Positions 2,040-7,864 of a stretch of 64,000 nt of DNA are shown here, piece by piece (position 1 is the first letter of the stretch; each line of letters begins with the position of its first letter). The DNA is taken from the IMG/VR virus record IMGVR_UViG_3300047557_002530. One strand, given 5' to 3'. Both the position numbers and the translations under genes were made by a program. The notes beneath the pieces were generated by a model. That model saw only the letters and a program-made list of their open reading frames with translations, had not been told where the DNA came from and made no database searches. This DNA is from a virus (lineage: Duplodnaviria > Caudoviricetes).

Positions 2040-2140
2040 CCGCTAACCGAGACCTATGGGTGTATAAAAACGTCTCTCATACCCACAGTGGAGGGTGCTG
2101 TGGGGAATAATCGTATCAGTTCGTCCCCCCGAACTTTTAA
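2040..2140 (+). ncRNA. Structured psbA 5' leader, PhotoRC-II-like RNA motif
   Basis: Complementary segments (gagac/gtctc, tatgggt/(a)taccca, ccacag/ctgtgg) directly upstream of a cyanophage psbA, where PhotoRC-II RNAs are known; boundaries approximate. Confidence 0.55.
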
Positions 2141-2157
2141 CTAACTCTCTTAAACAA

Positions 2158-3237
2158 ATGACTGCTACAATTTCACGTCAACAACAATCGAATACTTGGG
2201 AACAATTCTGCAACTGGGTTACTAGCACTGATAACCGTCTCTATGTAGGTTGGTTCGGAGTCCTGATGATTCCAACATTGCTCGCCGCAACAATCTGCTT
2301 CATCATCGCATTTGTCGGTGCTCCCCCTGTAGACATTGATGGAATCCGTGAACCAGTCGCTGGTTCTCTAATGTATGGAAACAACATCATCTCTGGTGCT
2401 GTTATTCCTTCGTCCAACGCGATTGGACTGCACTTCTACCCCATCTGGGAAGCTGCTTCACTTGATGAGTGGCTTTACAACGGCGGACCTTTCCAACTGG
2501 TAGTGTTCCACTTCCTCATCGGCATCTATGCTTATATGGGTCGTGAATGGGAACTCTCATACCGCCTAGGTATGCGTCCTTGGATCTGTGTTGCTTACTC
2601 TGCACCTGTTGCTGCTGCCAGCGCAGTGTTCCTAGTCTATCCTTTCGGTCAAGGTTCTTTCTCTGATGCAATGCCTCTGGGTATCTCTGGTACCTTCAAC
2701 TACATGCTTGTTTTCCAGGCAGAACATAACATCCTGATGCACCCCTTCCACATGCTTGGAGTTGCTGGTGTCTTCGGTGGTTCACTGTTCTCTGCAATGC
2801 ACGGTTCTCTAGTTACTTCCTCACTGGTTCGTGAAACCACCGAGCAAGAGTCGCAGAACTATGGTTACAAGTTCGGTCAAGAAGAAGAGACTTATAACAT
2901 CGTTGCAGCACACGGTTATTTCGGTCGCCTGATCTTCCAATATGCTTCCTTCAATAACTCTCGTTCGCTACACTTCTTCCTTGCTGCTTGGCCTGTTGTC
3001 GGTATCTGGTTCACTGCTCTTGGTGTTAGCACCATGGCCTTTAACTTAAATGGCTTTAATTTCAACCAGTCTCTGCTTGATAGTCAGGGTCGTGTAGTTA
3101 ACACCTGGGCTGATGTTCTTAACCGTGCTGGACTGGGAATGGAAGTGATGCACGAGAGAAATGCACATAACTTTCCTTTGGACCTGGCTGCTGCCGAAGC
3201 AACTCCTGTTGCTCTAACTGCACCTTCTATCGGTTGA
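2158..3237 (+). CDS. psbA: Photosystem II D1 protein
   Basis: Full-length D1 ([10 protein letters not shown]...HNFPLDLA plus C-terminal extension); no intron; real start at 2158, not 2095. Confidence 0.99.
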
Positions 3238-3331: not shown

Positions 3332-3760
3332 ATGAAAACTTGCAACATTTGTGGAGAAACGAAATCACTTGATGAGTATTATATCAATAATTTTGGATAC
3401 CCTCACGGTAAATGTAAAAAGTGCTATGTTAAAAAACAGCAAGAAAAATATGACCCAATGAAAAAAAGAAACGAAAACTTAAAAAGATGTTATGGAATAA
3501 CACTCCAAGAATATAATGAAATGTTAGATAATCAAAATGGTAAATGTGCCACTTGTGGAACTACTGAACCAGGAGGTAGAAAATCTGGTAGGGGCGGTGG
3601 TGCTGATGTATTTGTAGTAGATCACTGCCACGATACTGGTAAAGTTAGAGGTCTTCTTTGTCATAGTTGTAATAGGGCTATGGGACTATTAGGAGATAAT
3701 GTAAGCGTTATTGAAAGTATGATTAAATACCTTGAGCAGCACGAAATTAATGTCTCATAA
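3332..3760 (+). CDS. Free-standing homing endonuclease, endonuclease VII/HNH family (F-CphI-like)
   Basis: N-terminal CxxC...CxxC; VVDHCHDTGKVRGLLCHSCNRAMG endo VII motif; lies just downstream of psbA, as F-CphI does. Confidence 0.85.
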   Translation: MKTCNICGETKSLDEYYINNFGYPHGKCKKCYVKKQQEKYDPMKKRNENLKRCYGITLQEYNEMLDNQNGKCATCGTTEPGGRKSGRGGGADVFVVDHCHDTGKVRGLLCHSCNRAMGLLGDNVSVIESMIKYLEQHEINVS

Positions 3761-3940: not shown

Positions 3941-4087
3941 ATGACTTCTTCAACACTTTCACAACCAATTCAACAAAGGGGGTGGTTTGATGTCCTGGAT
4001 GACTGGCTTAAACGAGATCGCTTTGTATTTGTGGGTTGGTCTGGACTATTACTTTTTCCCACTGCTTATTTGGCCCTTGACTGGTAG
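3941..4087 (+). pseudogene. psbD: Truncated 5' end of psbD (46 homologous codons, then a stop)
   Basis: [48 protein letters not shown]; GGAGG RBS; homology ends at 4078. Confidence 0.92.
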
Positions 4088-4199
4088 GACTGCTGAATGA
4101 CTTTTCTGGGATTGTATCTAATCTTTATTGGTGTGAAGGGATTGTTTAGAGATTTACAGAGATACAGAGAACAAACTGATAATAGGTAAAAATATAAAA

Positions 4200-4256
4200 G
4201 ACACTTTCTAAACTGGAACAGGGGCACTTCGCAGGTGCCCTTTTTGATGGTATAAT
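4200..4256 (+). promoter_or_regulatory. Early-region-type promoter/stem-loop cassette (copy 1)
   Basis: GACAC-N7-ACTGGAAC, hairpin gggcac/gtgccc, TATAAT at 4251; same layout as copies at 54877, 56835, 61331, 63439. Confidence 0.65.
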
Positions 4257-4280
4257 ACTCTCATATACAAAGAGTTTCAA

Positions 4281-4676
4281 ATGCTAAAAACTAAAACTGT
4301 AAAGATAGTAAGTGTGAGTGATTGGGATGACTTTGTAATCCTTATCTATGGAAAGCATTACAGTTTTCAACAACAAGATGGGTGTAAATCAAGAGGAACT
4401 GCTTATTTTACTGTTCCAAATCAATATGATGCGGAAGAGTTTGATAGTGAGGCAACTACAATCCCATTTGAAGTTAATGGTGAAGAAATGGGTGTGAGTT
4501 TTGAAACTTGGTTGAATACAAATTTGGAGGATACTGCTTCACACTTTGAATCTGATTGGGAGAATAAGTTGTTCTGGGAAAGGAATTTTTATCCAGATGT
4601 AAACACAATTGTTTGGGACTTATACAAACGAGGATTGCTTGAAGAAGGTGAATATATGATTGATATTGATTGGTGA
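4281..4676 (+). CDS. Hypothetical protein of early-gene type, inserted in the psbD locus
   Basis: 131-aa acidic ORF behind the promoter cassette. Confidence 0.7.
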   Translation: MLKTKTVKIVSVSDWDDFVILIYGKHYSFQQQDGCKSRGTAYFTVPNQYDAEEFDSEATTIPFEVNGEEMGVSFETWLNTNLEDTASHFESDWENKLFWERNFYPDVNTIVWDLYKRGLLEEGEYMIDIDW

Positions 4677-4737
4677 CTAAAAAGTAAAAATATTCATTTG
4701 TATAAATAATAATGTAGTTAACACAGTAGTAGTAAGA

Positions 4738-5319
4738 ATGAAACATAAGCACCATATTATTCCAAGACATATGGGTGGTAGTGATGACCCATCAAATCTT
4801 ATTGAACTGACTGTGGAAGAACACGCAGAGGCACACAGAAAGTTGTGGGAGCAATATGGTAATATCAAAGATTATTGTGCTTGGAAAGGTTTAGAAGGAA
4901 CTATTGGTAAAGAAGAGATTGTAAGGTTGCTGATGGACCCAACTGGAAGAGTTCATACAGAAGAAACCAAGAAGAAAATGAGTGAGGCACATAAAGGCAA
5001 ACCAAAGCATACACCTGAAAGTAAAGAAAAAATAAGTGAAGCAAGAAAAGGAAAGCCTTTGAGTGAGGAGCATAAAAGAAAAATAGGTGAGGCAGGTTTA
5101 GGTAATAAAAGATGTCTTGGAAATAAACTAACAGAAGAGCACAAAGAAAAACTTTCTAAAAGTATGAAAGGAAATAAAAATGCTTGTGGTCCTCAAAAAG
5201 TTAGTGAAGAAGCAAAGAAAAATAGAAGTGAAGCAACCAAAGAAAGATGGAGAAAATATAGAGAACAAAAAGGATTTGACCCTAACAAACCTATTGATGG
5301 TAGATACTCTAAAATATAG
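4738..5319 (+). CDS. HNH homing endonuclease with NUMOD3 repeats
   Basis: [34 protein letters not shown] core; repeated [12 protein letters not shown]-type motifs; TATAAATA late promoter upstream. Confidence 0.85.
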
Positions 5320-5419
5320 TGCCCGCAAGGGCACCTGCCGAAGGCAGTAAGTATAAATACACTTCCCTTTTTATCCAGTTTCCATTACAATAAATATGTA
5401 AAGTAATGTAAAGGAGGCT

Positions 5420-6484
5420 ATGACTTCTTCTGTTTTACAGACACCCTCCCAATCACAGCGTGGATGGTTTGATGTCCTTGATGATTGGTTGAAAAGGGAC
5501 AGATTTGTGTTCGTAGGTTGGTCTGGCCTACTTTTATTTCCAACAGCATACCTCGCACTTGGTGGGTGGCTTACTGGTATTACATTTATCACTAGTTGGT
5601 ATACACACGGTATTGCTTCAAGTTTTTTAGAAGGTTGTAATTTCTTAACAGCTGCGTTGAGTACCCCAGCAGATGCTCTCGGACATTCCCTTCTACTTCT
5701 CTGGGGTCCTGAGTCTCAAGGGGATTTCATCAGGTGGTGCCAACTTGGGGGACTCTGGACTTTTGTGGCGCTCCACGGATCTTTCTCTCTGATTGGATTC
5801 ATGCTTCGTCAGTTTGAGATTGCTCGTCTTGTAGGCATTCGTCCTTATAATGCTATTGCATTCTCTGGACCCATTGCGGTCTTTGTGAGTGTCTTCCTGA
5901 TGTATCCTCTGGGTCAATCCAGTTGGTTCTTTGCACCATCGTTTGGTGTTGCTGCTATCTTCAGGTTCCTTCTGTTCCTTCAGGGTTTCCACAACTGGAC
6001 CCTCAACCCCTTCCATATGATGGGAGTTGCTGGTATACTGGGTGGAGCACTGCTCTGTGCTATTCACGGAGCAACCGTAGAAAACACACTATTTGAAGAT
6101 GGTGACCAAGCAAATACCTTCAAAGCATTTGAACCGACACAGGAAGAAGAGACCTACTCTATGGTTACTGCTAACAGATTCTGGTCTCAAATCTTCGGTA
6201 TTGCGTTTAGTAATAAGCGTTGGCTTCACTTTTTTATGCTATTTGTTCCTGTTATGGGTTTGTGGACTTCCAGCATCGGTATCATTGGTCTTGCCCTTAA
6301 TCTTCGTGCTTATGATTTTGTAAGTCAGGAGATTCGTGCTGCAGAAGATCCGGAATTTGAGACCTTCGTAACAAAGAACATATTATTGAATGAGGGAATT
6401 CGTGCTTGGATGGCACCTGTAGACCAACCTGGAGCAAACTTTGTATTTCCAGAGGAAGTTTTGCCTCGTGGAAATGCTTTATGA
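5420..6484 (+). CDS. psbD: Photosystem II D2 protein, with recoded 5' and 3' ends
   Basis: Full-length D2 ending [10 protein letters not shown]; GGAGG RBS. Confidence 0.99.
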
Positions 6485-6513
6485 TATAAATAATTCTATC
6501 GTGCGGTAGAATT

Positions 6514-6960
6514 ATGGAAAAGATGGGAATGCTTACCATTCTTGATGAATGGTCTGATAAGGTTCACAGATACTGTAAAGTTCAGTGTGAATGTGGAACT
6601 ATAAAAACAGTTCGCAGATCATCTATGAAACCTGGACAAACAGTATCTTGTGGATGTTATAGACGAGAACTTGATAGAAAGAAGGGGAGAGATCTTCGTT
6701 CACCTATGTGGTCTCGGGCAAAATATAGAGCAAAACAAAAGGGTCTGGATTTTAATATCACAAAAGAAGATATTGTTATTCCAGACACCTGCCCTTTGTT
6801 AGGCACTCCTATGGAATCGCCATCATTAGATCGTATTGATTCTTCCAAAGGATATATCAAAGGTAATGTGTGGGTCATCAGTAATAGAGCAAATACTTTA
6901 AAAAATGATGCTACATTACAAGAACTCAAAACATTAGTTGAAAATCTGGAGAAACTATGA
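6514..6960 (+). CDS. HNH homing endonuclease
   Basis: SLDRIDSSKGYIKGNVWVISNRANTLKN HNH motif; N-terminal CQCECG...SCGC; TATAAATA upstream at about 6485. Confidence 0.85.
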   Translation: MEKMGMLTILDEWSDKVHRYCKVQCECGTIKTVRRSSMKPGQTVSCGCYRRELDRKKGRDLRSPMWSRAKYRAKQKGLDFNITKEDIVIPDTCPLLGTPMESPSLDRIDSSKGYIKGNVWVISNRANTLKNDATLQELKTLVENLEKL

Positions 6961-7103
6961 AAGATACTTCTACAAATCAACTTCCACCAAATCAAAAATA
7001 CATTGGGTGGAAAGAAGTAAATGAAAAAGAATTTGATGAGTTGTTTCCTCCCATCCAAAAGAAAAATCGTGAGGAAGTTCTACCGCGAGGTAATGCACTC
7101 TAA
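6957..7103 (+). pseudogene. 48-codon ORF ending in a displaced copy of the last 10 psbD codons (7071-7103)
   Basis: MKDTSTNQLPP...[14 protein letters not shown]. Confidence 0.75.
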
Positions 7104-7111
7104 AAATAAAT

Positions 7112-7139
7112 AAAAGGAGTTCTCTGAACTCCTTTTTTT
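7112..7139 (+). terminator. Intrinsic terminator (probably the original psbD terminator)
   Basis: aaaaggagttc-tct-gaactcctttt followed by a T run. Confidence 0.75.
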
Positions 7140-7210
7140 ATGCTCCTTATTCTTATTCTTTTTCAACTCTTTGGAATCCTAATGTTTATATTATCTGTTA
7201 TGCAAGACCT

Positions 7211-7330
7211 ATGATAACTTCTACAACACCATATAAATTGGCAGAGATCATTAGAGATACTTGGCCAAACCTTTACAGACCGCCAATAAAGACTTATAAT
7301 CAATCAAAAGCACAAGAAAAGAATGTATGA
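7211..7330 (+). CDS. Small hypothetical protein (39 aa)
   Basis: MITSTTPYKLAEIIRDTWPNLYRPP..., read manually. Confidence 0.45.
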   Translation: MITSTTPYKLAEIIRDTWPNLYRPPIKTYNQSKAQEKNV

Positions 7331-7607
7331 CTATTGGGTGGTGACAGACAAAACCACAGGTAGAGTAATCGCTCATTGCGGGGAAGAGAATGATGCATTG
7401 ATGTTAGTTGGATTTGATAAAGATAAAAGAAATTATCGTAAACAAAAGTTTATTCTGGATCAGGTCATTACAGTAACATCAACAACAGATAAACAACTTC
7501 CTGGTCAATTGGGTTTACCTGCAGCAAAAGAAGAACTTCCTCCTATGGATCTTCAACAACAAGTATGGTTGCCTGAGGGACAGGGAATTCCAGTTAACGC
7601 TAAATAA
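7323..7607 (+). CDS. Hypothetical protein
   Basis: 94-aa ORF in the operon chain. Confidence 0.65.
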   Translation: MYDYWVVTDKTTGRVIAHCGEENDALMLVGFDKDKRNYRKQKFILDQVITVTSTTDKQLPGQLGLPAAKEELPPMDLQQQVWLPEGQGIPVNAK

Positions 7608-7627
7608 CTTTCAGTTTTATAACAATT

Positions 7628-7864
7628 ATGAAATTTACAGTTTATTCAAAAGACGGTTGCCCATATTGCACAAAGGTTCAACAAGTGCTAGAGTTGGCAC
7701 AACTACAATACGTAGTCTACAAATTGAATACTGATTTTACTCGTGATGAGTTTTATGCTGAGTTTGGAGAAGGTTCTACCTTTCCTCAAGTAATTATTAA
7801 TGACAAACACATTGGTGGGTGTTCGGATACCGTTCAATATCTACAGGAGCAAAAATTAGTTTAA
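7628..7864 (+). CDS. Glutaredoxin (NrdC-like)
   Basis: CPYC active site; TFPQVIIND..IGG. Confidence 0.92.
   Translation: MKFTVYSKDGCPYCTKVQQVLELAQLQYVVYKLNTDFTRDEFYAEFGEGSTFPQVIINDKHIGGCSDTVQYLQEQKLV

Follow-up and report, generated by a model that had tools for sequence, protein, structure and literature searches.

In a T4-like freshwater cyanophage, the gene psbD, which encodes the D2 protein of photosystem II, ends in a foreign tail that is linked to the gene of a predicted free-standing nuclease, and what comparison with relatives identifies as the native end of psbD lies stranded downstream of that nuclease gene. The arrangement probably arose when a psbD gene ending in the codons now found at 7071-7103 received a copy of a mobile cassette, most likely by intronless homing. 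A preliminary description of this DNA, made from its letters, had proposed a second, independent intronless invasion at the 3' end of psbD, and the analysis supports that interpretation: the native tail is present in nuclease-less relatives, and the working tail is nuclease-linked.

The psbD locus

The window, by which we mean the whole stretch of 64,000 nucleotides that was analysed, belongs to an IMG/VR viral contig of 92 kb. The features of the locus are, in order:

2095-3237: psbA
3332-3760: Endo VII-type nuclease gene, directly after psbA (Pfam 1.5e-23)
3941-4087: 5' fragment of psbD, 48 codons
between this 5' fragment and the HNH+NUMOD3 gene: hypothetical gene
4738-5319: HNH+NUMOD3 nuclease gene
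5420-6484, plus strand: psbD (photosystem II D2), intact, 354 codons, mosaic (Pfam Photo_RC 5.7e-72)
6401-6484, plus strand: cassette-borne psbD tail (84 bases common to L004; the minimal 45 bases, 6440-6484, common to L009-L012)
6485-6492, plus strand: TATAAATA box, T4 late-promoter consensus, abutting the psbD stop codon
6492-6515, plus strand: RNA hairpin, next to the nuclease start codon and overlapping part of it
6514-6960, plus strand: free-standing nuclease gene, 148 amino acids (phrog_3322 match, fold model)
6957-7103, plus strand: ORF48, a chimeric frame whose ATG overlaps the nuclease stop codon
6963-7046, plus strand: foreign fragment of a cyanophage gene of ~102 amino acids (79% identity to residues 51-78 of the L148 protein)
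7071-7103, plus strand: displaced psbD end, native by comparison with relatives, last 10 codons and stop (33/33 bases identical to L101)
7112-7136, plus strand: native psbD terminator, 11-bp stem and T run

Beyond the terminator follow small genes and then nrdC. The layout in the cultured Synechococcus phage S-SKS1 is alike (psbA-EndoVII-HNH ... psbD-nuclease).

The window comes from a metagenome-derived viral contig, of which chimeric assembly might be suspected; the probability of this is vanishingly small, given that three independent studies each contain contigs, 708-743 bases in length, that run from 6401 or 6436 to 7143 with 0-3 differences, spanning both junctions, and that the same architecture is present in other IMG/VR contigs. 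The copy at 7071-7103, whose absence from reads the preliminary description had named as evidence against an invasion, is contained in these cassette-spanning contigs. The stretch is present in runs from 14 studies, mostly freshwater, and nuclease-less tails occur as alternative continuations in the same samples. In one RNA library, contigs cover 6296-6843 (from a relative, with 20 differences) and 6879-7029.

Two copies of the psbD end

The working psbD gene ends in GAG GAA GTT TTG CCT CGT GGA AAT GCT TTA TGA (6452-6484), and the second copy of this end reads GAG GAA GTT CTA CCG CGA GGT AAT GCA CTC TAA (7071-7103). Both the repeated decapeptide and the synonymous differences in six of the last seven sense codons, as reported in the preliminary description, can be read directly from the two copies, and so can the terminator behind the second copy and the ATGA coupling, in which the TGA of ORF 6514-6960 overlaps the ATG of ORF 6957-7103. 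Between the copies, 8 of 30 bases are changed, all synonymously, and the stop codons differ; the first 9 bases of both form a perfect direct repeat, 619 bases apart. A match of 10 residues is far beyond chance.

Set against the local psbD genes, the synonymous differences show a foreign origin and not necessarily a selected recoding, because these genes differ by ~20% anyway. We considered whether the differences prove recoding for immunity, and rejected this, a divergence of 27% being ordinary among these psbD genes; the tail difference of 8/30 lies within ordinary psbD divergence and does not by itself prove immunity.

The terminator sequence 7118-7144 was sought in IMG/VR and found exactly in 62 contigs, ~48 of which are without the nuclease and lead from psbD through codons of the 7071-7103 type and a AAAATAAATAA spacer into the terminator. 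Thus, as the preliminary description had predicted, nuclease-less relatives carry 7071-7103-type codons directly at the psbD end, and in one of them, L101, the match to the remnant is complete. Positions 7071-7699 of the window are collinear with L101 (90%) and L133 (87%), beginning inside the psbD tails of these relatives, both of which are without the 619-base insert; the locus is therefore polymorphic for its presence or absence. Of the 53 nuclease-less tails, 47 resemble the remnant more closely than they do the working tail, the opposite of the use of 6452-6484 codons in relatives without the nuclease that would have spoken against the invasion. The tails closest to the working tail are those of nuclease carriers (1-4 differences), and some nuclease-less tails, on type-B backbones, resemble the cassette tail. 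By these comparisons, 7071-7103 is the native psbD end, stranded downstream of the nuclease gene. The order of foreign end, nuclease ORF and native end is that of a gene-end replacement with a stranded native terminus, of the mitochondrial type.

Boundaries of the cassette

The last 45-84 bases of the working psbD gene are 93-98% identical to nuclease-carrying contigs (80/84; 40-44/45), with psbD bodies at 76-82%, and the jump in identity at the tail is significant (Fisher p from 3e-5 to 8e-27); these bases are linked to the nuclease gene, as in co-conversion. When the window is compared with L004, identity is 78.5% in the psbD body (5420-6400) and 97.8% over 6401-6860. For L009-L012, the corresponding values are 76-82% in the body and 92-94% from 6440, and for L014, 77.5% in the body and 98.1% over 6711-7070. 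At the right-hand side, the window and L014 are identical at 110/110 bases over 6961-7070 and then at 21/29 inside the remnant. From the edges of identity with L014 on one side and with L004 and L009-L012 on the other, it therefore follows that the unit extends from the last 45-84 psbD bases exactly to the first base of the remnant. Judged by these identities, the cassette of the window is itself recombinant, with an L004-like left part and an L014-like right part.

In D2, the cassette-linked stretch brings DQPGANF in place of DQPHENF (6431-6436). The GAN of this motif lies inside the tract common to L004 and L014-L016, and Gly at this position is also found in some nuclease-less phages (DQPGERF). 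A separate difference in D2 was observed at 6368-6370, where the window has FETFVTKN and most relatives have FETFYTKN, Val being found only here and in L044.

The preliminary description had presented the old psbD end as finishing a 48-codon ORF. This holds, but ORF48 is chimeric, with part of a different gene built into it: the match of its residues 3-30 to the L148 protein has an E value of 1e-9, and the cyanophage gene from which the fragment derives is normally located just 5' of nrdC, with a divergent copy in the window itself at 7323-7607. On this comparison, ORF48 is a start codon followed by a 28-codon captured foreign fragment and the old psbD tail, that is, a scar and not a gene. The likeness of ORF48 to L014 reflects recent shared ancestry and not selection, because the identity holds in the DNA. 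We rejected ORF48 as a real conserved gene on account of this identity at the DNA level and of its core, which is a piece of a different gene.

The 3' invasion is independent of that at the 5' end of psbD, as had been proposed: L133 has the 5' cassette without the 3' nuclease, and L008, L014 and L016 show the reverse. Over 4222-5700, a stretch that takes in both the 5' cassette and the new psbD start, L133 is 99% identical to the window; within the working psbD gene, identity to L133 is 100% for the first ~260 bases. The region 3941-5680 has the appearance of a mirror-image event at the 5' end of psbD; in relatives without the HNH+NUMOD3 cassette, the sequence of 3941-4079 is the true psbD start (86-91% identity, contiguous with psbD).

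Occurrence of the nuclease gene and of stranded tails

Relatives of the 148-amino-acid nuclease (48-97% identity) are located directly 3' of psbD in ~54 IMG/VR contigs, and a homologue occupies the same place in S-SKS1. In the window, the ORF starts 29 bases past the psbD stop codon, outside any intron or intein, and is thus free-standing. A DNA search of GenBank phages with 6485-7200 revealed no close relative, S-SKS1 being the only match (86% over 104 bases).

Stranded tails begin at the same codon in L011, L012, L014, L015, L017, L018 and L020. In L011, L012, L017, L018 and L020, the tail continues the reading frame of the nuclease as a fusion, and in L014-L016 it stands behind the same ORF48 filler; the stranded remnant of L033 comprises 28 codons. 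Each remnant has its own backbone-specific sequence and its own terminator type, and for the second terminator type, nuclease-less relatives carry the matching tail type as the true psbD end. L014 and L015 have a common cassette and differ in both remnant and terminator. Such a pattern would be expected if the remnant and the sequence downstream of it belong to the recipient and act as right-hand homology. Bearing indirectly on a possible site-specific cleavage, the junction recurs between FP and EEV, and neither of the two donor copies has the sequence of the intact site. Remnants are missing from L004-L010 and many further lineages; a possible 7-base trace in L006-type contigs is too short to be claimed as one. 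At the level of sequence comparison, these data establish the insertion 30 bases before the psbD end, the origin of both tails, the boundaries of the cassette, its recurrence and its polymorphism in the population.

Approximately 1.3 kb upstream of the window (L002:1120-1644, G000:C1), the interval from an hli gene to petF, downstream of pstS, encodes a 174-amino-acid paralogue of the psbD-linked nuclease (46% identity), which may represent a second cassette with another target.

Late-promoter box and hairpin

Nearly all lineages, among them S-SKS1, have the TATAAATA box at a distance of 21-26 bases upstream of the nuclease start. The hairpin at 6492-6515 (minimum free energy -10.5 kcal/mol) reaches into the AUG; across 8 lineages it has 9 pairs with 90% of the cells paired, compared to 28-56% when slid, and compensatory changes are seen in 4 of the 9 pairs. 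Thus, at the sequence level, the nuclease gene has the T4-type combination of a conserved box near the ORF and a covarying hairpin over its start. Control by box and hairpin has been described for I-TevI, I-TevII, I-TevIII, segB and Aeh1 mobE (PMC2988022). By analogy, the TATAAATA box would act as a late promoter, and the nuclease would be expressed only late. L053, L056 and L084 (S-SKS1) have a long-range hairpin, with the 5' arm before the box and the 3' arm just before the ATG; this places the promoter in the hairpin loop, the classic I-TevI-type layout.

The predicted nuclease

The label "HNH" given to the protein in the preliminary description needs correction, as the gene is not a canonical HNH: a Pfam scan of the 148 residues detected no HNH family even at E 0.1, and Arg or Lys stands where the catalytic His should be. 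Matches among PHROG families include phrog_3322 'endonuclease' (2.9e-32), as well as phrogs labelled EndoVII, HNH and Srd, the phrog_1400 'Srd anti-sigma factor' matching residues 70-145 at 9e-11. The AlphaFold model (pLDDT 91) has a Cys-rich beta domain at the N-terminus and, at the C-terminus, a beta-beta-alpha unit with strands at 103-107 and 119-123 and a helix at 124-132, and the motif of this presumed beta-beta-alpha-metal domain is SLD-R-ID..GY..N..N. D106, Y114, N118 and N127 are invariant in 29 relatives; the position after D106 is Arg, or Lys in some relatives.

When residues 58-148 were compared with known structures, PacI (Z 6.5, rmsd 2.7 over 80 residues) and Hpy99I (Z 5.1) were the best matches, followed by Gme HNH (Z 4.7) and McrA (Z 4.0), all of them below Z 8 and modest. 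Sequence profiles matched none of the solved structures at E values up to 1, and with Foldseek nothing in the PDB reached E 0.001 (PacI being the best, at 0.014). PacI has no His general base and uses Tyr instead (PMC4081073), and a PacI-like active site with Y114 is a reasonable reading of the model. The protein is, as modelled, a divergent beta-beta-alpha-metal nuclease without the canonical histidine, and its activity is predicted. Weak relatives of the C-terminal domain were found by tblastn in ~350 Escherichia phage records (T4-like coliphages), and the T4 Srd family may share the His-less beta-beta-alpha domain.

Proposed mechanism and alternatives

Cleavage, its position, the immunity of the donor and homing are steps that we infer, as follows. 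The cassette itself comprises no fewer than 45 bases of foreign psbD tail, the late-promoter box, the regulatory hairpin, the nuclease gene and a 110-base hitch-hiking fragment. In a mixed infection, the nuclease would cut or nick a nuclease-less psbD near the boundary of FP and EEV, ~30 bases before the stop codon, and the break would be repaired from the donor genome, with the psbD body as the left homology arm and the last 30 psbD bases plus the terminator as the right arm. The insertion splits the presumed target, and the imported tail keeps D2 intact. The founding event was probably a one-sided, illegitimate break repair, for which there is a documented precedent in T4 (PMC2988022). We also lean, if only slightly, towards the broader view that the previously uncharacterised His-less (PacI-like) family is specialised in homing into psbD, is widespread among cyanophages of fresh and estuarine waters and enters coding sequence without an intron or intein by means of a replacement gene end, the stranded 30-base end being both the mark of the cleavage site and the right homology arm.

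Alternatively, the module might be a passive passenger that spreads by ordinary homologous recombination in the psbA-psbD region, its protein being inactive as a nuclease or serving another role, for example, that of an Srd-like regulator. The missing catalytic histidine, the failure to match Pfam HNH families and the similarity to phrog_1400 are compatible with such a passenger, as are the general mosaicism of psbD and the proneness of the psbA-psbD region to recombination. We nevertheless consider this unlikely: the position of the gene 3' of psbD is strictly maintained over 48-97% protein identity and on different backbones, the edges of the cassette are sharp, stranded tails recur at one junction, and D, Y, N and N are invariant in the beta-beta-alpha-metal model, whose best structural match, PacI, likewise dispenses with His in favour of Tyr (PMC4081073).

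The remaining alternatives concern the two tails. If the stranded decapeptide were translated and owed its retention to some use, forming the C-terminus either of ORF48 or of the nuclease, this could explain its in-frame position in ORF48 of the window, its in-frame fusion to the nuclease in five lineages (L011, L012, L017, L018 and L020), and the conservation of the peptide in spite of differing bases. However, only two or three independent junctions are involved, and the in-frame state may be due to chance; moreover, the base differences follow the recipient backbones, a Gly-to-Arg change is present in L015, and the remnant is wholly lost in L004-L010 and most lineages, so that we regard selection on the peptide as decidedly improbable. 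Even lower is the probability, very slight in our estimate, that the polarity is the reverse, with a native working tail and a downstream copy imported with the cassette together with its terminator. A duplication by itself gives no polarity, but the collinearity of 7071-7699 with the nuclease-less L101 and L133 does, the working tail is the one common to nuclease carriers with unrelated backbones, and the same cassette is joined to different remnants and terminators in L014 and L015. The reading that we prefer remains the copying of a mobile cassette into psbD.

Photosystem genes flow between cyanophages and cyanobacteria, and phage psbD and psbA are major carriers in this exchange. If gene conversion at the psbD end is indeed forced by a nuclease, such an enzyme would be a concrete driver of psbD/psbA mosaicism, and the cassette could bring amino-acid changes into D2, such as DQPGANF for DQPHENF. 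Gene-end replacement would be a third route for endonuclease genes into phage coding sequence, beside introns and inteins. The target is predicted by sequence, ~30 bases before the psbD stop codon, and S-SKS1 on Synechococcus WH7803 offers a cultured entry point.

Relationship to known systems

F-CphI of cyanophage S-PM2 is a free-standing homing endonuclease encoded beside psbA (PMC6083498, PMC3037559). In both cases, the gene of a free-standing nuclease lies directly 3' of a photosystem gene, with the neighbour gene as the target, here a presumed one. The two differ in protein family (a His-less DRID motif here, an Endo VII motif in F-CphI) and in target (psbD vs. psbA), and the S-PM2 donor is protected by an intron, whereas protection here would come from the split site and the replacement gene end. 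The Endo VII-type gene of the window at 3332-3760 is placed after psbA as F-CphI is in S-PM2.

T4 SegF, SegG and MobE resemble the present system in being free-standing nucleases with co-conversion of flanking markers, a late promoter and hairpin, and one-sided illegitimate repair (PMC2988022), but they are encoded either in intergenic positions or within a gene that is thereby divided into two functional pieces. The same T4 review describes no gene-end duplication or stranding, the string 'duplicat' being absent from its text (PMC2988022). PacI and Hpy99I are the best structural matches, and the Tyr base of the His-less PacI (PMC4081073) has its counterpart in the invariant Y114; they are, however, restriction enzymes and not mobile elements, no sequence relationship to them is detectable, and the Z scores are modest.

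In the literature searched, neither a nuclease linked to psbD nor a stranded end of psbD or of another phage gene was found described; the arrangement is known from fungal mitochondria, and the same search gave no report of it from phages. The atp6 gene of Allomyces is the classic example of such a C-terminal duplication. In atp6 and cob of fungal mitochondria, an intact gene is accompanied by endonuclease ORFs and a partial C-terminal copy of the same gene, the same architecture as that described here, with the duplicated C-terminus beyond the endonuclease ORF (PMC6279837). The fungal nucleases are of the LAGLIDADG or GIY-YIG type and organellar, whereas the psbD cassette belongs to a T4-like phage, encodes a nuclease of the beta-beta-alpha-metal type and is followed by a remnant of 33 bases.
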